Positions 49,141-59,972 of a stretch of DNA of 64,000 bases are shown here, in pieces. The notes under the pieces are model-generated. The model did no database searches. It was not told the DNA's origin and worked only from the letters and a program-made list of their open reading frames with translations. The stretch covers positions 471-64,470 of the forward strand of contig JACFNV010000001.1 of assembly GCA_019454675.1 (NCBI GenBank). The letters run 5' to 3'. Every line of letters starts with the position of its first letter. Positions within the stretch are counted from its first letter, which is position 1. A program made the position numbers and the translations under genes. The stretch comes from Gammaproteobacteria bacterium (GTDB taxonomy: Bacteria; Pseudomonadota; Gammaproteobacteria; Steroidobacterales; GCA-2729495).

Positions 49141-50034
49141 ATGCAGGGCATGAACAAGCCCGCGGCAAGGCTCCATCAGAGCGGCAGGAAACACGAGAGC
49201 GACTGGCCGGGACTGGTCCTCGCCGCCTGCCGACTCATCGAGGCGGCGGATGACGAGGCCAATCTTGGCAGCATCCTGGAAACCCTCGGAGTCGGCGCGG
49301 CCGGCTTGCGCCGCCAGTTCCGCGCGCGGCTCGGCATCACGCCCGGTGCCTACCTGCAGGCGCTGCGCCTGGAGCGCCTGGTGCGTCGCCTCAACCACGA
49401 ACCCGATGTGCTCGCGGCCGTGCTGGGGGCTGGCTTCCAGTCCTCCACGCGCGCCTACGCCACGGTGCGCAAGGCCACCGGCCTGTCCCCCGGCCGGCTG
49501 CGCGACAGCCCGCGCATCGGCTGGTGGCTCGGCCTCTCGGAGCTGGGCTGGATGCTGATGGCGGCAACCCCCGCGGGCATCTGCTGGCTTGCCTTCGGCA
49601 GCTCGGCCCGCGAGCTGCTCGGCGGGCTGGCCGCCGCCTTTCCGCAGGCGCAGTGGATCGACGATAGCGCACGCCTGCACGGCTGGTTCGAGCGGGTGCG
49701 CGAACACCTCCTGTTGCCCGCCGCCGCCCTCGACCTGCCGCTCGACATCCGCGGCACCGCCTTCCAGGCACGGGTCTGGCAGGCGCTGCGCGACATCCCG
49801 CTGGGCGAGACCTGCAGCTATGGCGAGCTGGCGGGACGGCTGGGCAAGCCCAGCGCCACCCGGGCGGTGGCCGCCGCCTGCGGTGCCAACCGGGTGGCGG
49901 TGCTGATTCCCTGCCATCGGGTGATCGGTGCCGATGGCTCGGTCACCGGCTACCGTTGGGGCATCGCCCGCAAGCAGCAGCTCCTCGCACGCGAGCGGGA
50001 GGCCGCCGACGGACAGCCGGCGCAGTCTTCCTAG
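49141..50034 (+). CDS. Methylated-DNA-protein-cysteine methyltransferase with AraC-type HTH (Ada-like, lacks Zn domain)
   Basis: R-F---LGITP--Y, LDIRGTAFQ-RVWQAL, SYG-LA, RAVA-AC-AN, IPCHRVIG. Confidence 0.88.
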   Translation: MQGMNKPAARLHQSGRKHESDWPGLVLAACRLIEAADDEANLGSILETLGVGAAGLRRQFRARLGITPGAYLQALRLERLVRRLNHEPDVLAAVLGAGFQSSTRAYATVRKATGLSPGRLRDSPRIGWWLGLSELGWMLMAATPAGICWLAFGSSARELLGGLAAAFPQAQWIDDSARLHGWFERVREHLLLPAAALDLPLDIRGTAFQARVWQALRDIPLGETCSYGELAGRLGKPSATRAVAAACGANRVAVLIPCHRVIGADGSVTGYRWGIARKQQLLAREREAADGQPAQSS

Positions 50035-52661
50035 AGGGCGAGCTCCACGGCGGGTTCGCGCAGGTTGTAGCGCGAGCTCATCACGTAGCCGTAGGCGCCG
50101 GCATTGGCGATCGCCAGCACATCGCCCTCCCGGCAGGGCGGCAGCAGGCGATCGGCACCCAAGCGATCACCGGTCTCGCAATTCGGCCCGACGACATCCA
50201 CCGTCTCGGCCGGTGGCTCGCCCCAGCGCGAAAGATTGGCGATCTCGTGGTAGGCGCCGTAGAGCGCCGGCCGGATCAGCGAATTCATGCCCGTGCTGAC
50301 CCCGACGTAGTGCATGTCGCCCTTGCCCTTGGTCTGCGTCACCGTGGTGAGCAGCACGCCCGCCTCGGCGATCAGGTAGCGACCCGGCTCCAGCCAGAGC
50401 TCGTAGGCGGGCCAGGCCTTGCGTACCTCCTGCAGGCTGGCACCGAGCGCGGCGAGATCGAGGCGCCTGCCATCGCGCCTCTCGGGCACCCCGAGCCCGC
50501 CGCCGAGGTCGAGGAAGCGCAGGTGCGGGAAGTCGCTGGCCGCGGCACCGAGGATGCGCGCCACCTGCTGCCAGTTGTCGGGGCTGAGGATGCCGCTGCC
50601 GGTATGGGCATGCAGGCCCACCACCCGTGCCCCGGCACGCTCGATCAGCTCGCGGGCCTCGGCCAGCTCGAACAGCGGGATGCCGAACTTGGAGTGCAGG
50701 CCCGCGGTGCGCACGTGCTCGTGGTGCCCGTGCCCCTCGCCGGTGTCGATGCGCAGGAAGATCTCCCTGCCTGCGAACATCCCGGCCCATTCGCGCAGCG
50801 GAAAGATGTTGTCGAGCGTCAGCCACACGCCCTGCTCCAGCCCGAAGGCGTACTCGGCGCGCGGCGCAAAGTTGGGGGTGAAGAGGATGCGCCGGCGGTC
50901 GATGCCGGGAAACAGCTCGAGCACGCGGCGAATCTCGCCCGGCGAAACGCATTCGAAGCCGAGCCCCGCCTCGTGCACCACCTGCAGCACCCGGGGGTTG
51001 CTGTTGGCCTTCATGGCGAACAGCAGCCTGCCGAGGGCGGGCATCGCCTGCAGCCTGGCGATGGCCTCGCGCACGGTCTGCAGGTCGTAGACATAGGCCG
51101 AGGCGTGCTCTTCCGCCAGCGCGATCAGTTCGCGGCGGCGCCTCGCCCACCAGGGCTCGGGCAGGGCCTCGCCATCCGTCCTGCCCTCGCGCAGCTCCTG
51201 CCAGGTGGGGCCGAAGACGGCATCCTCGCGCGTCGGCGGCACCAGCAGTTCATGCAGGGTCTGGATCACCCGGCGCGACTGGCCCTCCTCGACCACGATG
51301 CTCAGGTTGAGGTCGCTGGCCGCCTGGCTGACGAGATGGATGCGCAGCTCCTGGAATGCCTCGAAGGCGGAACCCAGCTTGTGCAGCACCGAGCGTATCT
51401 TCTGCCCGACGAGGCTGACCACCTCGACGTTCTCGATGATTTTCACCCGGCACAGCTTCTCGAGGGATGCGCGCAGGGCGGCCAGCACACCGGCATCCAG
51501 CGCGTTGGCGCCCGGATCCAGGGTCACCGTCACGTTGCTCTCCGAGGTGGAGACCAGGTCGATGGACAGCCCGAGTTCGCTGAAGCAGCCAAAGGCGCTG
51601 GCGAGGAAGCCCGCTTCCTGCCACATGCCCAGCGTTTCCATCGAGACCAGCGTGACGCGGACGCGGCTGGAGATGGCCTTGACCTGTGGCGTGCTGCTGC
51701 CTGGATCACGGCTGACGAGCGTGCCGGGCAGCCGTGGCCGGGTGGTGTCCTTGACCCGCAGCGGGATGGCGTGCCGGCGCAGCGGCGCCAGGCAGCGCGG
51801 ATGCAGCACCGAGCCGCCCATGGAGGCGATTTCCTGCGCCTCCGCATAGCTCAGCACCCGCAGCAGGCGCGCACCATGCACGGTGCGCGGGTTGGCGCTG
51901 AACATGCCGGGCACGTCGGTCCAGATCTCGAGCCCGGCTGCCGCCAGCTTGGCCGCCAGGTAGGCACCCGAGATATCCGAGCCACCACGCCCGAGGATCA
52001 CGGTCTCCCCCGCCTCGTTGCCGGCGATGAAACCCTGGGTCAGCACGACGCCCCGGGCCTCCCGGCAGGCCTGCTGCACCGCCGGGTCGACATCGAATGC
52101 GCAGCGCGCATTGATGAAGCGTGCGCGCAGGGTGGCATGCGGCTGCTCGACGGCGCGCAGCAGGCGGCGCGCATCCAGCCAGGTCGTCTCCAGCCCGCGC
52201 GAACACAGCCAGGCCGCGCCCAGGGTGGTGGACATCAGCTCGCCCATGGCCATGGCACGCGCATGCAGCCGCGGCGTGACCTCGCCGGTGAGGCGCATGC
52301 CGGCAAACAGCTGCGCGAGCTCGGCCAGGTAGCCGCCGATCAGCGCCGGGCCATCGACACCCATTTCACGGGCCAGCTCCAGGTGCGCCGCCTCGATGGC
52401 GGAGAGCTGCTCGTCGACATCCTCGCGGCCGACCCTGGCAAGCGCGTCCTGGATGCGGTTGGAAACCCCCGCCAGCGCCGAGTGGACCACGATCGGCCGG
52501 TATCCGGCGGCGATGCGCTCGACCAGCAGTTCATGGATGCCGGCCCAGTTGCGGGCGCTGGCCACGCTGGTGCCGCCGAACTTGAGCACGATCCACGGGG
52601 CATCGTGCAGCGGCGTGCCGCTCGGCAGGCTGGGAAAGGTGTCGGCATCCAGTGTCGTCAT
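50031..52661 (-). CDS. lysAC: Bifunctional aspartate kinase / diaminopimelate decarboxylase (LysC-LysA fusion)
   Basis: LKFGGTSV, LGRGGSD, WTDVPG, two ACT-like domains, FAMKAN (PLP Lys), HTGSG, DLGGG, EPGRY, GPNCETGD. Confidence 0.94.
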   Translation of the reverse strand: MTTLDADTFPSLPSGTPLHDAPWIVLKFGGTSVASARNWAGIHELLVERIAAGYRPIVVHSALAGVSNRIQDALARVGREDVDEQLSAIEAAHLELAREMGVDGPALIGGYLAELAQLFAGMRLTGEVTPRLHARAMAMGELMSTTLGAAWLCSRGLETTWLDARRLLRAVEQPHATLRARFINARCAFDVDPAVQQACREARGVVLTQGFIAGNEAGETVILGRGGSDISGAYLAAKLAAAGLEIWTDVPGMFSANPRTVHGARLLRVLSYAEAQEIASMGGSVLHPRCLAPLRRHAIPLRVKDTTRPRLPGTLVSRDPGSSTPQVKAISSRVRVTLVSMETLGMWQEAGFLASAFGCFSELGLSIDLVSTSESNVTVTLDPGANALDAGVLAALRASLEKLCRVKIIENVEVVSLVGQKIRSVLHKLGSAFEAFQELRIHLVSQAASDLNLSIVVEEGQSRRVIQTLHELLVPPTREDAVFGPTWQELREGRTDGEALPEPWWARRRRELIALAEEHASAYVYDLQTVREAIARLQAMPALGRLLFAMKANSNPRVLQVVHEAGLGFECVSPGEIRRVLELFPGIDRRRILFTPNFAPRAEYAFGLEQGVWLTLDNIFPLREWAGMFAGREIFLRIDTGEGHGHHEHVRTAGLHSKFGIPLFELAEARELIERAGARVVGLHAHTGSGILSPDNWQQVARILGAAASDFPHLRFLDLGGGLGVPERRDGRRLDLAALGASLQEVRKAWPAYELWLEPGRYLIAEAGVLLTTVTQTKGKGDMHYVGVSTGMNSLIRPALYGAYHEIANLSRWGEPPAETVDVVGPNCETGDRLGADRLLPPCREGDVLAIANAGAYGYVMSSRYNLREPAVELAL

Positions 52662-54688: not shown

Positions 54689-56122
54689 TCAATCGCCGAG
54701 GATTTTCCCGGGATTCATGATGCCCGCGGGATCGATGGCCTGCTTGATGGCCTGCATCAGCTGCAGCTCCACGCCACCTCGATAGCGCCGCAGCTCGGGC
54801 ACCTTGAGCAGCCCGATGCCGTGCTCGGCGCTGAAGCTGCCGCCGAGTGCAACGGCCACGGCATTGACCTCGGCGGTCAGGCTCTCCCAGCAATCGAGGA
54901 AGCTTGCCGCTTCCATGCCCTCGGGCTGGCTGAGGTTGTAGTGGATGTTGCCATCGCCCACGTGGCCGAAGGCCACCACGCGGGTGCCGGGCAGGCTCTC
55001 GGCAACCCGCCGCCCTGCGAGCTCGAGAAAGGCCGCCACCTGCGATACCGGCACCGAAACATCGTTCTTGATGCTGGCACCACCCACGCGCTGTGCATCG
55101 GATACCGCGTGGCGCAGCATCCAGAGCGCCTCGCGTTGCGGGCCGCTGCGCGCGAGCACCCCGTCCAGCAGCAGCTCGGACTCCAGGCAATCCGCGAGGA
55201 AAGTCTCCAGGTCGGCCTCGACGCTCGCCTGGTCGCGTGCCGTCGCGATTTCCAGCAGCACATACCAGGGGGCAGGCTGCGCCAGCGGATCACGGGCAGC
55301 CGGCTGCCAGGCAAGCACGAAATCCAGCGCCTGGCGTCCCAGCAGCTCGAAGGCGATCAGCTCGTCGCCAAGCGCCAGGCGGGCACGGCTGTGCAGCGCG
55401 ATGGCAGCGGCCGGGTCGCGCAGCGCCACCAGCGCGGTGGCCACCCCGCGTGGCCGCGGATACAGCTTGCAGGTGGCTGCCGTGATGAAACCGAGCGTGC
55501 CCTCGGCGCCGATGAACAGCTGCTTGAGGTCGTAGCCGGTATTGTCCTTGCGCAGCGCACGCAGGCCATCGAAGACACGGCCATCGGGCAACACCACCTC
55601 GAGGCCCAGCACCAGCTCGCGCGCCGTGCCGTAACGCAGGACATTGGTGCCGCCGGCGTTGGTGGAGAGGTTGCCACCCAGCATGCAGCTGCCCTCGGAG
55701 GCAAGGCTCAGGGGAAAGAAGCGGTCGGCCTCCGCAGCCGCCGATTGCAGCGCCGCCAGTGCACAACCTGCCTCGGCGGTGATCGTGTAGTTGTCGGGAT
55801 CGAGCTCGCGGATCGCATGCATGCGCCGTGCGGAGAGCACGATCTGCGGGGCCTCCGCGGTGGAGCGGGCAACCGCACCGCCCACCAGGCCGGTGTTGCC
55901 GCCCTGTGGCACCACGCCGATGCCATGGCGGGCGCACAGGGCAATGACCGCAGCCGTCTCCGCCGTCGTGGCGGGCAGCAGGACCGCAGCCGCCACGCTT
56001 TCATAGCGATGCCGCCACTCCGCGAGGAAGGGCGCAAGCTCCGCCGGCTGGGTGAGGCAGGCATCGGCGCCGACGATGTCCCGCAGTTCCCGGAACGGGC
56101 GGGACTCAAGAAAAGTGGCCAT
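54689..56122 (-). CDS. FAD-binding oxidoreductase (D-2-hydroxyacid dehydrogenase / GlcD-like)
   Basis: VPQGGNTGLVGG, GGNLSTNAGG, RKDNTGYDLKQLFIGAEGTLG, FGHVGDGNIH, SAEHGIG. Confidence 0.92.
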   Translation of the reverse strand: MATFLESRPFRELRDIVGADACLTQPAELAPFLAEWRHRYESVAAAVLLPATTAETAAVIALCARHGIGVVPQGGNTGLVGGAVARSTAEAPQIVLSARRMHAIRELDPDNYTITAEAGCALAALQSAAAEADRFFPLSLASEGSCMLGGNLSTNAGGTNVLRYGTARELVLGLEVVLPDGRVFDGLRALRKDNTGYDLKQLFIGAEGTLGFITAATCKLYPRPRGVATALVALRDPAAAIALHSRARLALGDELIAFELLGRQALDFVLAWQPAARDPLAQPAPWYVLLEIATARDQASVEADLETFLADCLESELLLDGVLARSGPQREALWMLRHAVSDAQRVGGASIKNDVSVPVSQVAAFLELAGRRVAESLPGTRVVAFGHVGDGNIHYNLSQPEGMEAASFLDCWESLTAEVNAVAVALGGSFSAEHGIGLLKVPELRRYRGGVELQLMQAIKQAIDPAGIMNPGKILGD

Positions 56123-56238
56123 CTCGGGCTTCCGCCTCCGGGCGGCAGGCGGCGGCTTGCGCCGCCGATGACGAATGCAGTACGTTCCGTGGCAGCGCAT
56201 CTTAGTTCCCTGCGGGGCAGGTAGCCAGACTGGCCCGC

Positions 56239-57522
56239 ATGCGGTCTGTGAGCAAGCTGATGGATCAGACATGGCATGGCCGGACCACCCGGGGCGACAT
56301 CTCCAGGGAACTCGATGAAATGCTGACGGGCTCGAGCCTGAGCCTGCAGCAGCATGGCAGCCTGCGGGACCTCGACCGGCAACTGCACCAGCACTGGGGG
56401 CTCGGTCGCAACCTCGTCCTCGCCTGGTGCCCATCGGACAACGGCATCCTCGTGCTGCTGGTGCCGCACTATGCGCTGGCCGAATACGCAGCGGCCGCCC
56501 TCCCCGGCGAGACCGACTCCCGCCAGGCCTTCGTGACGCGCCTGCTCACGGGCTCGCGCCGCTTCTCCGCCCGCCAGCTCGGCAACGCGGCGAGGCTGCT
56601 CGGCACCGAGGTGGTATCCATCACCCTGCGCCGACCACTCGCGGATACCCCCGGCGAACAGCGCCTGGTCGAGCGCATCGTGGCGCGCTACGGGGTGAGC
56701 CTGGTACCGAGCCGGGCGGTGGCGCTGTTCGACATCGTCGGCTTCAGCCTGCTGCGACCCTTCGAGCAGATGACGCAGCTCAACAGCCTCACCTACTCGC
56801 TCAACTCCGCGCACAGCAAGCTGCTGGGCAGCCGGCTCAAGGTGGAGTTTGCCCGCTCGGGCACCGGCGATGGCTTCTACATCTGGAATCGCGGGGTCGG
56901 CGTCGAGGCCAACACCAATCTCTACCACCTGATGCACCTGGTGCTGGCGGACAATGCCATCGCCCGGCGCAAGGCCGCCGGCCGCACAGTGCCGCTGCTG
57001 CGTGCCTGCTTCCACGTCGGCAGCTGCTACGAATTCCACCATGCCGAGGGGCTCAATCCCACCCTGACCACCCAGGTCGTCGGCGATGTCACCATCGAGC
57101 TGGCGCGGATGATCGAGAATGCCCTGCCCGGCCAGATCCTCGTCGGCGATTTCCAGGCGCGCCTGCCGACCGACGAGGCGGCCACCAGCCCGCTGCTCGA
57201 CTTCGATGCCATCGGCTTCGTCGAGCACGCGCGCAACCGGCTGCTGCGCCTCAACGGCCTCGAGCTGGCGGGAGAGGCCATCGAATCGATCCGCTGCTAC
57301 CTCACCGGGCATGCCAGGGCGGATGGCAGCTTCACCATCCGGCGGCTGGCCCTCAGCGACAAGCACGGGCTGACCCACGGCGCCTTCAACGCCAAGCTCA
57401 ACATCTACCGGCGGGGCGCGGCCGAACCGATCCTGCTCGGCATCGAGGACCGCCACCTGCGCGGCGATGATCCGCCGCTGCCGACCGCAGGCCATATCAT
57501 GCCTCCGGATGCCCGCCATTGA
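56239..57522 (+). CDS. Divergent class III nucleotide-cyclase-like protein
   Basis: AVALFDIVGFS (Asp1), TGDGF (Asp2), LRACFHVG, VVGDVTIELAR, A-PGQILV; uncharacterised N-terminal region of about 150 aa. Confidence 0.7.
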   Translation: MRSVSKLMDQTWHGRTTRGDISRELDEMLTGSSLSLQQHGSLRDLDRQLHQHWGLGRNLVLAWCPSDNGILVLLVPHYALAEYAAAALPGETDSRQAFVTRLLTGSRRFSARQLGNAARLLGTEVVSITLRRPLADTPGEQRLVERIVARYGVSLVPSRAVALFDIVGFSLLRPFEQMTQLNSLTYSLNSAHSKLLGSRLKVEFARSGTGDGFYIWNRGVGVEANTNLYHLMHLVLADNAIARRKAAGRTVPLLRACFHVGSCYEFHHAEGLNPTLTTQVVGDVTIELARMIENALPGQILVGDFQARLPTDEAATSPLLDFDAIGFVEHARNRLLRLNGLELAGEAIESIRCYLTGHARADGSFTIRRLALSDKHGLTHGAFNAKLNIYRRGAAEPILLGIEDRHLRGDDPPLPTAGHIMPPDARH

Positions 57523-58577
57523 GTGCGGGCGACTTCCTGCGCTACGGCGCGCTGGCGCTGCAACTCACCACCTGCTCGGTGGGCCACCTGTCCGACCCGC
57601 GGCAGGCACGCGCACGGATCCTGCAGAACATCGCGCGGATCGCCCAGCGCATCGGCGCCATCCTCGAGGCGGGCGACGGCGGCTCTGCCCTGCCCCTGCG
57701 GCTCATCGTGCTACCCGAGTACTCGCTGAGCGGCTCGCCCACGCCGGGCGTCTTTGCCAACTGGCGCCGGCTGGCGGCACTCGAGCCCGCCGGCGCGGAA
57801 TACGAGGCGCTTGCCGCCATCGCGCAGCGCCACGGCCTGTACCTCGGCGGCAATGCCTACGAGGCCGATCCGGCCTTCCCCGATCTCTACTTCCAGGCCT
57901 GCTTCCTGTTCGCCCCCTCGGGCCAGCAGGTATTGCGCTACCGGCGACTGATCTCGCTGTACTCGCCCTCCCCCTACGATGTCCTCGAGCGATACCTGGC
58001 GATCCACGGGCGCGAGTCGCTGTTTCCCGTTGCCGATACCGACATCGGGCGGGTCGCGGCGATTGCCTCGGAGGAAATCCTCTATCCGGAAATCGCGCGT
58101 TGCCACGCCATGCGCGGTGCCGAGCTGTTCATCCATTCGACCAGCGAGATGGGCAGCCCGCTGCCCACCGCCAAGGACGTCGCCAAGCGCGCCCGGGCCG
58201 CCGAGAACCTCGCCTACGTGGTATCCGCCAACACCGCCGGGGTGGAGAACACCTCGCTGCCGGCATGTTCCTCGACCGGCATGTCGAAGATCGTGGATTA
58301 CGAGGGGCAGGTCATCGCCGCAGCCCCGGGCGGCGGCGAGAGCCATGCCGCCCTGGCCGAGGTCGACCTCGCGGCGCTGCGCGCCAGGCGCCGGCAGGGC
58401 GGGCTCGGCAACCCGCTGGTGCGCCAGCCACTGCAGGCCTATGCAGAAAGCTATCGCCAGGCGCCCTTCCATGCTGCCGGCCAGCTCGAGGCAGCGGATG
58501 CAAGATCCGAGACGGCCACCTTGCGCGAGACCCAGCTGCGCAATATCGAGCGATTGGCGCGGCTTGGGCTGATCTGA
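57519..58577 (+). CDS. Nitrilase/carbon-nitrogen hydrolase-fold protein with non-canonical catalytic residues
   Basis: LIVLPEY, LRYRRL, FPVA-T-IG, IASEEILYPE--R---RGAE, RA-EN--YV-S-N, G-S-I-D--G; TTG start overlapping upstream TGA. Confidence 0.82.
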   Translation: MSAGDFLRYGALALQLTTCSVGHLSDPRQARARILQNIARIAQRIGAILEAGDGGSALPLRLIVLPEYSLSGSPTPGVFANWRRLAALEPAGAEYEALAAIAQRHGLYLGGNAYEADPAFPDLYFQACFLFAPSGQQVLRYRRLISLYSPSPYDVLERYLAIHGRESLFPVADTDIGRVAAIASEEILYPEIARCHAMRGAELFIHSTSEMGSPLPTAKDVAKRARAAENLAYVVSANTAGVENTSLPACSSTGMSKIVDYEGQVIAAAPGGGESHAALAEVDLAALRARRRQGGLGNPLVRQPLQAYAESYRQAPFHAAGQLEAADARSETATLRETQLRNIERLARLGLI

Positions 58578-58692
58578 AGGCAATCACGCCGCGTCATGCG
58601 GGCGAGCCCGGGGAGGCGATACCCCAGGGCACCGCCATCAACAAGCACCCCGGCAACAAACGCCCGCAGCCGGGGCACTGGCCACCGCGCCG

Positions 58693-59700
58693 TCAGCGCG
58701 GCTTCTTGCCGGGCTTCCGGGCGGGACTGCTGCGCTCGTGGGCGTGTGCCTCGCCGTTGCCGTGGTCGTGCACGTAGAAGTCGGTGGAGCTCCGGTCTGC
58801 TTCACCATCCTCGTTGGCATAGTCGTACTGCGGAAACTCGAAGTCGTGCGGGTGGTTGTGCCCGTCGGGCGAGCGGATCCACTTGTAGAGATTGGGCTTG
58901 TACCTGCGGATGACCGCAGCCGCACGCTCGCGATTCTCCTCGGGCGTGGACCACGGGTTGTAGTGGAAGTAGTTGTGCAGCGAGCTGTCGGTGCGCCCGA
59001 AGCCGAGCACGCCGAGCTGGCTGGCGAAGGCGCCGTGGTTGATCCAGGCCGGGCGCCAGAAGTAGCCGCCGGTGGGCAGGTTGCCGAACTGCATCATCGA
59101 GGAGGTGCCCCAGATGTGGTAGCTCTCCTCGGCGCAGTCATGGTAGGAGATGTTGTCCTGCCAGTAATTGGGGGTCATGCAGTAGAGCAGCGAATGCGCA
59201 TGGGTGAGCGGGTCGGCGCGCAGCATCTTCACCATGCAGCCCGGTGCCACCGAGGGGGTGATGAAATTGGCGACCTTCCACTGCAGCCCCTCGTAGGCAT
59301 CGACGATGATCAGCTGGTCACGCAGGGCACGCGGGTGATCGGCGTCGGACTCGAGGAAGCTGGGCTCGCCGTAGTTGTAGAAAAGCAGGCCCTCTGCTCC
59401 CTTGGGCGAGCTCATGGCCGGCATGGAAACGCCAGCCGGAACGAAGAAGTAATGCCCCTTGCCGTAGGTCTTCTCTCCATAGCGCACCGAGCCCGAGAGA
59501 ATGAAGAGCTCCATCTCGGAGTAGCTCAGGCCAGGCGGCTGCCGGTAGCCGGACTCGAAGCGCACGGTCATCGAGCAGGCCCCGCTATCGGTGTCGAGGC
59601 TGAGCATCTTGTACTTCATCCCCTTCGGGAAGCCCGGCAGGCTCATCTTCTTGAAGTCGACGTCGCGATCGACGAAGGGTTCGATGTGGGGTCGGGCCAT
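58693..59700 (-). CDS. Tandem cupin protein (DUF4437/ChrR-like) with His-rich tail
   Basis: K-LS-D-DSGACS, E-FILSG, GHYFFVPAGV, YH-CAEE-Y, GGYFWRPAWINHG. Confidence 0.72.
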   Translation of the reverse strand: MARPHIEPFVDRDVDFKKMSLPGFPKGMKYKMLSLDTDSGACSMTVRFESGYRQPPGLSYSEMELFILSGSVRYGEKTYGKGHYFFVPAGVSMPAMSSPKGAEGLLFYNYGEPSFLESDADHPRALRDQLIIVDAYEGLQWKVANFITPSVAPGCMVKMLRADPLTHAHSLLYCMTPNYWQDNISYHDCAEESYHIWGTSSMMQFGNLPTGGYFWRPAWINHGAFASQLGVLGFGRTDSSLHNYFHYNPWSTPEENRERAAAVIRRYKPNLYKWIRSPDGHNHPHDFEFPQYDYANEDGEADRSSTDFYVHDHGNGEAHAHERSSPARKPGKKPR

Positions 59701-59895
59701 CGTGGTTCTCCAGCTGCAGTGCGGGCATGCTCCGGCAACCTGGCGAGGCGGTGGTGCGCCACCGTGGTCATCCGGGTCGCAGCGGCTGGTTATAGCACGA
59801 TATGCCAAGCAGCCGGAAGTTTCCGGCCGTCGCCCACGGCGAGGCACCGCGGGCGGTTGCCACCCACGGCATCCAACGGGCTTCATGGAAGGAAA

Positions 59896-59972
<77 letters not shown>

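Follow-up and report, generated by a model that had tools for sequence, protein, structure and literature searches.

The nitrilase superfamily is taught as possessing an invariant Glu-Lys-Cys catalytic triad. Among its characterised members, the aliphatic amidase AmiE and the formamidase AmiF (2uxy, 2plq, 2e2k and 5g3p) combine an alpha-beta-beta-alpha fold with a length of approximately 340-350 amino acids and a C-terminal extension. These characteristics are shared by the product of a gene, hereafter the hydrolase, located at positions 57519-58577 of a 64,000 nucleotide stretch of DNA, referred to throughout as the window, from a member of the Gammaproteobacteria (GenBank assembly GCA_019454675.1, contig JACFNV010000001.1, positions 471 to 64,470 of the forward strand). 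Compared with AmiE and AmiF, the hydrolase has Arg in place of Lys, Ser in place of Cys and a Glu immediately after the nucleophile position, and is a structural member of the superfamily with a non-canonical active site. Aliphatic amidase and formamidase are the nearest characterised relatives of the branch to which it belongs.

The hydrolase gene and its fold

57519-58577, plus strand: Glu-Arg-Ser nitrilase-fold (CN_hydrolase) gene, 352 amino acids, TTG start; assigned using Pfam, AlphaFold2 with Foldseek, and the ratio of non-synonymous to synonymous substitution rates (dN/dS)

The open reading frame (ORF) at 57519-58577 matched the Pfam profile CN_hydrolase (PF00795) with an E value of 8.7e-31 and a score of 107.6 bits against a cut-off of 23.2. 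An AlphaFold2 model of the protein had a predicted local distance difference test score (pLDDT) of 83 and a predicted template modelling score of 0.87. When this model was compared with the PDB using Foldseek, the best match was AmiE (2uxy, E 1.7e-20), followed by AmiF and Nit2; E values for the AmiE and AmiF structures lay between 1.7e-20 and 1e-18, with template modelling scores of about 0.65-0.7 and approximately 20% identity. By profile and by fold, the hydrolase is a member of the nitrilase or CN-hydrolase superfamily, as had been proposed in an earlier note prepared from the DNA letters alone.

Relatives of the hydrolase carry the automatic labels "nitrilase" or "amidohydrolase". A scan of the protein against NCBIfam returned amidase and nitrilase matches only, all of them far under cut-off. 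The equivalog scores were 51.8 bits against a cut-off of 427 for aliphatic amidase (NF009802) and 54.8 against 406 for formamidase (NF009803), so the hydrolase is not an orthologue of either AmiE or AmiF.

The reading frame is open for 16 codons 5' of the TTG, an interval that contains no start codon, and the N-termini of homologues agree with initiation at the TTG. A start 3' of this position would remove the conserved first strand of the protein.

Active site residues

57717-57719, plus strand: GAG codon of Glu67, the catalytic Glu retained in LPEY; alignment to AmiE and Nit3, Glu in 92/92 family members
57945-57947, plus strand: CGA codon of Arg143, at the catalytic Lys position; Arg in 92/92 Glu-Arg-Ser and 11/11 Glu-Arg-Cys proteins, Lys in 8/8 canonical relatives
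57978-57980, plus strand: GAT codon of Asp154, aligned with the second catalytic Glu of amidases; Asp in 92/92 family members and in 7/8 nearest canonical relatives
58068-58076, plus strand: TCG GAG GAA codons of Ser184-Glu185-Glu186, with Ser184 (TCG, 58068-58070) at the position of the nucleophilic Cys; each residue in 92/92 family members

Residues were mapped using HMMER alignments to the solved structures of Nit2 (2w1v), NitFhit (1ems), Nit3 (1f89) and AmiE (2uxy), and also to the Geobacillus amidase 4lf0. The LPEY motif aligned on the catalytic Glu block of AmiE and Nit3, L-R-Y-R-R-L on the x-x-Y/H-R-K block, with YRR replacing YRK, and A-I-A-S-E-E-I-L-Y-P-E on x-I-C-Y-D-x-x-F-P-E. The blocks shared with AmiE and AmiF are the Glu, Y-R-x, an acidic residue after the Lys block and x-x-Y/F-P-E. 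The positions of the Glu-Lys-Cys triad, by which the superfamily is defined, read Glu67, Arg143 and Ser184: Glu is retained, Arg stands for Lys and Ser for Cys. This is the assignment advanced in the earlier note from LPEY, YRRL and ASEEILYPE, and it is upheld by consistent alignments to solved structures.

Profile alignment to 2uxy and 4lf0 placed Asp154 (in P-Y-D) at the second acidic residue of amidases, which lies in P-I-E in AmiE. Asp is already present here in the closest canonical relatives; the change from Glu to Asp is thus a difference from AmiE and not part of the catalytic switch.

Conservation, distribution and selection

The best 120 of the thousands of relatives recovered by word-indexed search were 55-94% identical to the hydrolase and of equal length. 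In an alignment of 37 homologues, E67, R142, R143, D154, S184, E185, E186, Y189, P190 and E191 were invariant. When the sample was extended to 92 Glu-Arg-Ser sequences from Gammaproteobacteria, Alphaproteobacteria, Cyanobacteria and Bacteroidota, each of E67, R143, D154, S184, E185 and E186 was present in all 92; here and below, the related genomes contributing to counts are non-independent samples. A scan for the signature SEEI[LQ]YPE, using one genome per species, recovered at least 577 loci in Gammaproteobacteria, Alphaproteobacteria, many heterocystous Cyanobacteria and Bacteroidota. Strict conservation of Arg and Ser across at least 577 loci and four phyla implies that the fold has acquired a novel mechanism of catalysis or, alternatively, a novel role that is not enzymatic.

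Three further invariant residues are confined to the clade: Gln126, where relatives have Asn; Glu185, where relatives have Tyr or Gly; and Lys219, where relatives have Trp or Gln. At position 185 the canonical relatives carry Tyr, and 9/11 Glu-Arg-Cys relatives carry Gly.

Comparison with the nearest relative, L126 (94% amino acid identity), yielded a dN/dS of 0.12 for the hydrolase gene, which is under purifying selection. The possibility that the gene is a decaying canonical amidase or nitrilase, or that its residues have been misaligned, is virtually ruled out by the intact frame, the dN/dS value, the 92/92 invariance, the alignments to four structures and the confident model. Conservation of Arg and Ser among homologues had been suggested in the earlier note as a check on the prediction; Arg143 and Ser184 were invariant, well beyond what chance would produce, and no decay was seen.

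Origin of the Glu-Arg-Ser active site

A profile search over 1.84 billion cluster representatives recovered a mixed neighbourhood. Proteins with Glu-Arg-Ser (motifs ASEE and YRR) occurred alongside those with Glu-Arg-Cys (PCGE and YRR) and with the canonical Glu-Lys-Cys (ICYD and YRK), in addition to single-domain clades with E-K-A, Q-K-A and E-K-S. Many tandem proteins of about 580-750 amino acids with two CN-hydrolase domains were found among P0247-P0385; the N-terminal domain of these is usually degenerate (x-K-G, G-E-D) and the C-terminal domain canonical. This corner of the superfamily thus holds many active-site variants.

A maximum-likelihood tree of 52 sequences was rooted on the canonical Glu-Lys-Cys group, the root being dependent upon the choice of outgroup. 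All proteins bearing Arg formed a single clade (100/97), within which the Glu-Arg-Cys proteins were a basal grade between the canonical enzymes and the Glu-Arg-Ser clade. The main Glu-Arg-Ser clade was monophyletic (100/98) with a Glu-Arg-Cys sister (100/99); the hydrolase falls within it and bears all the residues of the clade (motifs YRR and ASEE-I-x-Y-P-E). Within the Glu-Arg-Cys grade, Cys changed to Ser a second time, in a small group (P0316/P0352). Since the Glu-Arg-Cys grade is basal under canonical rooting, the replacement of Lys by Arg is placed before that of Cys by Ser: on these sequences Arg appears to have arisen while the Cys nucleophile was still present, with the change to Ser occurring later. 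This order is as expected if the lineage remained functional, and the Glu-Arg-Cys intermediates provide a natural series in which the evolution of a nucleophile switch might be studied.

The upstream gene and the gene junction

54689-56123, minus strand: flavin adenine dinucleotide (FAD)-linked oxidase, GlcD-like, 477 amino acids from ATG 56123; Pfam FAD_binding_4 and FAD-oxidase_C, NCBIfam GlcD below cut-off
56124-56259, no strand: divergent intergenic region separating the FAD oxidase and cyclase-fold genes; gene boundaries estimated from the lengths of homologues
56239-57522, plus strand: gene with a divergent class III cyclase fold; the ORF opens at 56239 and translation probably starts at ATG 56260 (MDQTW, as in homologues), 420 amino acids
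57519-57522, plus strand: TTGA start/stop overlap of the cyclase-fold and hydrolase genes (TTG 57519-57521, TGA 57520-57522)
58693-59940, minus strand: cupin gene, ChrR Cupin_7 / DUF4437 by Pfam, convergent with the hydrolase gene

The gene immediately upstream of the hydrolase, described in the earlier note as cyclase-like, belongs to a large and highly conserved family. Its product had no Pfam match, with none to PF00211 even at an E value of 10, and none in a sequence search of the PDB. A search of the whole genome with PF00211 identified a separate canonical cyclase on contig C12 only, and alignment of the cyclase-fold protein to canonical cyclases of related genomes using hhalign gave a probability of 16% with one helix aligned. 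The AlphaFold2 model (pLDDT 83) nevertheless returned adenylyl or guanylyl cyclase catalytic domains for all of its top 50 Foldseek matches in the PDB, the best at E 2e-7 with a probability of 1.0 and about 15% identity. The description is therefore sound at the level of fold and does not extend to membership of the sequence family. Within the cyclase-fold family, D165 (FDIVGFS), D211 (GDGF) and R290 are invariant. From motifs and a weak local alignment, Asp165 and Asp211 map tentatively to the strand and hairpin of the metal-binding aspartates, and the helix GDVTIELARM would retain Arg290 and carry Ile286 at the usual Asn position. The dN/dS of the gene against L126 was 0.09.

The junction between the cyclase-fold and hydrolase genes, CATTGAGTG, is identical in L126, and overlaps of 4 bases were also present at the junctions of L001-L003. 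Overlapping stop and start codons are limited to these closest relatives; in other members of the clade the genes are separated by gaps of 21-300 nucleotides. Translational coupling, with the TTG placed over the TGA, had been claimed in the earlier note, and the 4-base overlap bears this out here and in the closest relatives. A consensus scan of 55800-59000 found neither a sigma-70 promoter nor a terminator.

Adjacency of the two genes was assessed in 41 related genomes, of which 32 possess the cyclase-fold gene and 31 a Glu-Arg-Ser hydrolase (E <=1e-40). Of 15 genomes belonging to the window's genus, 10 have the hydrolase directly 3' of the cyclase-fold gene. An eleventh has an insert of 3.2 kb between them (L160, G009:C1:1066000-1076000), comprising a 491 amino acid YD-repeat-like ORF and a fragment resembling the C-terminal end of an AMP-binding adenylate-forming enzyme; the remaining four carry the cyclase-fold gene without this hydrolase clade. 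Five further adjacent loci with the same hydrolase clade were found beyond the ten genomes of the genus. Among 16 loci of other genera with a cyclase-fold gene adjacency was not observed (0/16), and most of these have a Glu-Arg-Ser hydrolase elsewhere. Conversely, a cyclase-fold homologue was not found in five genomes with a Glu-Arg-Ser hydrolase, those of Thalassotalea, Calothrix, Shewanella, Westiellopsis and a sphingomonad. Both families are thus widespread apart from each other.

The window's hydrolase belongs to a clade of nine sequences (support 100; the four that were included in the reduced tree group at 100/100). Its sister is a further clade of gammaproteobacterial paralogues (89/94). 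All nine members of the window's clade share one arrangement: FAD oxidase (minus), cyclase-fold gene (plus), hydrolase (plus) and cupin (minus). The cupin gene was found beside every hydrolase locus of this clade that had enough flanking sequence; its true start is probably later than annotated, since homologues are 303-333 amino acids in length. PADLOC gave zero matches for the hydrolase, the cyclase-fold protein and the cupin, and so no known defence system is represented.

In 28 of 30 loci from relatives (L012-L041) representing several families of the order, the divergent FAD oxidase adjoins the cyclase-fold gene. This pairing is far more constant than that of cyclase-fold gene and hydrolase, and FAD oxidase and cyclase-fold protein may be the unit in which the cyclase-fold family actually functions. 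The general two-gene module envisaged in the earlier note does not hold, since adjacency is limited to one hydrolase clade (9/9) and to 10/15 genomes of the genus, with none in the 16 loci of other genera. Given that absence, the five genomes lacking a cyclase-fold homologue and the constancy of the FAD oxidase, the pairing is regarded as a lineage-specific operon arrangement, in which a young hydrolase paralogue has been placed behind an older, independently conserved cyclase-fold gene.

Elsewhere in the window, positions 50031-52661 (minus strand) encode an 876 amino acid protein in which an aspartokinase (AA_kinase and ACT) is fused to diaminopimelate/ornithine decarboxylase domains, followed by ilvD; this arrangement is kept in L001, L004 and L042.

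Gene neighbourhoods of related hydrolases

An aldehyde dehydrogenase (ALDH) gene was located near the Glu-Arg-Ser hydrolase in 42 of 80 loci. These proteins match Pfam Aldedh, their best NCBIfam match being succinic-semialdehyde dehydrogenase, below cut-off. The ALDH gene lies directly 3' of the hydrolase, with gaps of 3-300 nucleotides, in 35 cyanobacterial loci and in Thalassotalea and Shewanella; directly 5' in two loci of one gammaproteobacterial metagenome-assembled genome; and at a distance of 1-5 kb, in opposite orientation, in Oceanicaulis, in a sphingomonad and in another proteobacterial metagenome-assembled genome. The association points to an undescribed catabolic route. Other recurrent neighbours were a 150 amino acid DUF3598_N protein (26 loci) and a FAD_binding_4 oxidase (6 loci spread over three proteobacterial groups), together with major facilitator superfamily (MFS) transporters and GntR/UTRA regulators in several proteobacteria and an RCC-reductase-like protein in Nostocales. 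The FAD oxidases near hydrolases in other phyla were considered as orthologues of that in the window and rejected, identity being 26-33% over partial alignments.

In the Nostocales loci L071-L123, the hydrolase-ALDH pair often has the RCC-reductase-like gene on its 5' side and DUF3598_N and histidyl-tRNA-synthetase-like genes on its 3' side. A Rieske/VanA_C oxygenase gene and a CpeT-like gene are situated near the hydrolase in the gammaproteobacterial locus L042. A link of the hydrolase to tetrapyrrole or bilin breakdown is conceivable.

The window's genome contains three Glu-Arg-Ser paralogues, each adjoining a different oxidoreductase. The second (55% identical; G000 C159:8247-14287) is always divergent from genes for an Fe-S/flavin protein and the alpha and beta subunits of a 2-oxoacid:acceptor oxidoreductase, in about 22 loci; a dienelactone-hydrolase gene often follows this oxidoreductase cluster (L007; L005, L043, L044, L050-L072). 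The third (47% identical; G000 C171:6740-11737; L008; L149-L159) opens an operon that also encodes alpha (Tat-signal) and beta (Fe-S) subunits of an enzyme of the type II dimethyl sulphoxide (DMSO)-reductase family, for which the nearest named relative is ethylbenzene dehydrogenase, and this order is kept in 11/11 genomes, drawn from several genera. The two ALDH homologues of the genome, 51-54% identical to operon-linked ones, adjoin none of the three paralogues. A single partner common to the three loci was sought and not found, only oxidoreductases of different kinds being present; a small-molecule redox enzyme beside each paralogue fits a metabolic hydrolase. A 2-oxoglutarate or omega-amidase theme, drawing together the GlcD/D-2-hydroxyglutarate-dehydrogenase-like oxidase, the 2-oxoacid oxidoreductase and the succinic-semialdehyde-dehydrogenase-like ALDH, was entertained and set aside as speculation, as no neighbour reaches an equivalog cut-off.

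The same genome encodes a 380 amino acid homologue of the CN-hydrolases (G000 C4:12966-15762; L163 4966-7762) that bears a lipoprotein signal (AIVAGAC) and departs from the canonical form in its nucleophile block. It adjoins a 530 amino acid FAD_binding_4 oxidase, which is approximately 40% identical to the oxidases that accompany Glu-Arg-Ser hydrolases in other phyla. A large ORF, then a Cys-rich Fe-S-like ORF, plus another ORF lie 5' of this pair.

Possible function of the hydrolase

The hydrolase is probably a functional, remodelled small-molecule hydrolase of an unnamed branch of the nitrilase superfamily, paired with the cyclase-fold gene in its own lineage. Of the alternatives raised in the earlier note, a serine-nucleophile amidase or a catalytically repurposed ligand binder, the evidence tilts towards an active enzyme with an altered site. 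The catalytic set would have been rebuilt as Glu67-Arg143-Asp154-Ser184, with Glu185, Gln126 and Lys219 as new invariant residues. Glu67 may act as the base that activates Ser184, which would attack the carbonyl or imine carbon of a small molecule; Arg143 may assume the role of Lys in oxyanion stabilisation or clamp a substrate carboxylate, with Glu185 and Lys219 as putative compensating additions. The enzyme would act in a catabolic route feeding an oxidoreductase, and the window's copy would be the youngest of three paralogues in the gammaproteobacterial lineage, co-translated with the cyclase-fold gene via TTGA. Several observations weigh against this interpretation. Cys-to-Ser or Cys-to-Ala variants of canonical superfamily enzymes serve as substrate-trapping forms, and the PDB holds such forms of canonical enzymes (C158S in 5h8k/5h8l, C146A in 6ypa); the substitution alone would therefore not be expected to yield a working enzyme unless other residues had changed too. 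The three paralogue contexts agree only in adjoining an oxidoreductase, and a full-text search of the literature found no description of a Ser/Arg variant of the superfamily or of its gene neighbourhood. It is possible, if doubtful, that the protein is instead a non-catalytic pseudoenzyme in which the fold survives as a subunit for ligand binding or scaffolding, for instance as a partner or sensor of the adjoining oxidoreductases. The loss of both Cys and Lys is typical of dead members of enzyme families, the substrate-bound state of the deposited Cys-to-Ser/Ala forms would be in keeping with binding, close sequence neighbours are rich in triad variants (E-K-A, Q-K-A, E-K-G) and in tandem proteins with a degenerate domain, and a different redox enzyme beside each paralogue fits an accessory role. 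However, every catalytic position holds a chemically equivalent residue that is invariant in 92/92 sequences, the new polar residues E185, Q126 and K219 came with the switch, Arg is first seen in proteins still bearing Cys, and the ALDH, MFS transporter and GntR regulator that are operon partners elsewhere resemble a catabolic pathway.

A true two-gene unit within the genus, in which the hydrolase processes the product of the cyclase-fold protein, nucleotide-derived or otherwise, or forms a regulatory complex with it, is unlikely. The TTGA overlap here and in the nearest relatives, the position of 9/9 hydrolases of the window's clade directly behind the cyclase-fold gene and purifying selection on both genes are all consistent with such a unit. 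These are outweighed by the cyclase-fold genes that lack an adjacent hydrolase (16/16 loci of other genera and four genomes of the same genus), by the spread of the hydrolase family in genomes where no cyclase-fold homologue was found, by intergenic gaps of up to about 300 nucleotides in more distant clade members, by the 3.2-kb insert in one genome and by the FAD oxidase being the conserved partner of the cyclase-fold gene. A combined proposal, that Glu-Arg-Asp-Ser proteins are active through a serine nucleophile or without a covalent intermediate and that one paralogue in this genus now acts on the cyclase-fold product or is under its control, is distinctly improbable.

If Glu-Arg-Asp-Ser proteins are active enzymes of this kind, a superfamily hitherto regarded as Glu-Lys-Cys throughout would contain a second mode of catalysis. 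Cultured hosts of the branch include Nostoc, Calothrix, Thalassotalea piscium and Shewanella glacialipiscicola. For annotation, "nitrilase" or "amidase" function should not be transferred to Glu-Arg-Ser genes, and a tight gene overlap should not be taken as proof of a conserved module.

Comparison with known enzymes

The cyclase-fold protein has in common with the class III cyclase domain (PF00211; 5o5l, 3et6 and 1wc5) the core fold; by the tentative motif mapping, its two invariant Asp residues would occupy the metal-ligand positions and its Arg that of the GDxxNxxxR helix, with Ile in place of the conserved Asn. It differs in having extra N- and C-terminal domains and no Pfam match.

The best matches of the hydrolase to PDB entries at the level of sequence were Nit2/omega-amidase and Nit1-type enzymes (2w1v, 1ems and 1f89; E 2e-11 to 3e-8), in which the order of the catalytic blocks is the same. 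These differ from the hydrolase in their length of approximately 270-290 amino acids and in their canonical Glu-Lys-Cys triad; the window's genome holds canonical Nit-type and N-carbamoylputrescine-amidase-type copies elsewhere. The immediate phylogenetic neighbour is the unnamed, equally uncharacterised Glu-Arg-Cys clade (P0260, P0265 and P0275), which shares the YRR block, Asp154, Glu186 and length with the hydrolase, but lacks Glu185, Gln126 and Lys219 and has kept the Cys nucleophile within P-C-G-E.

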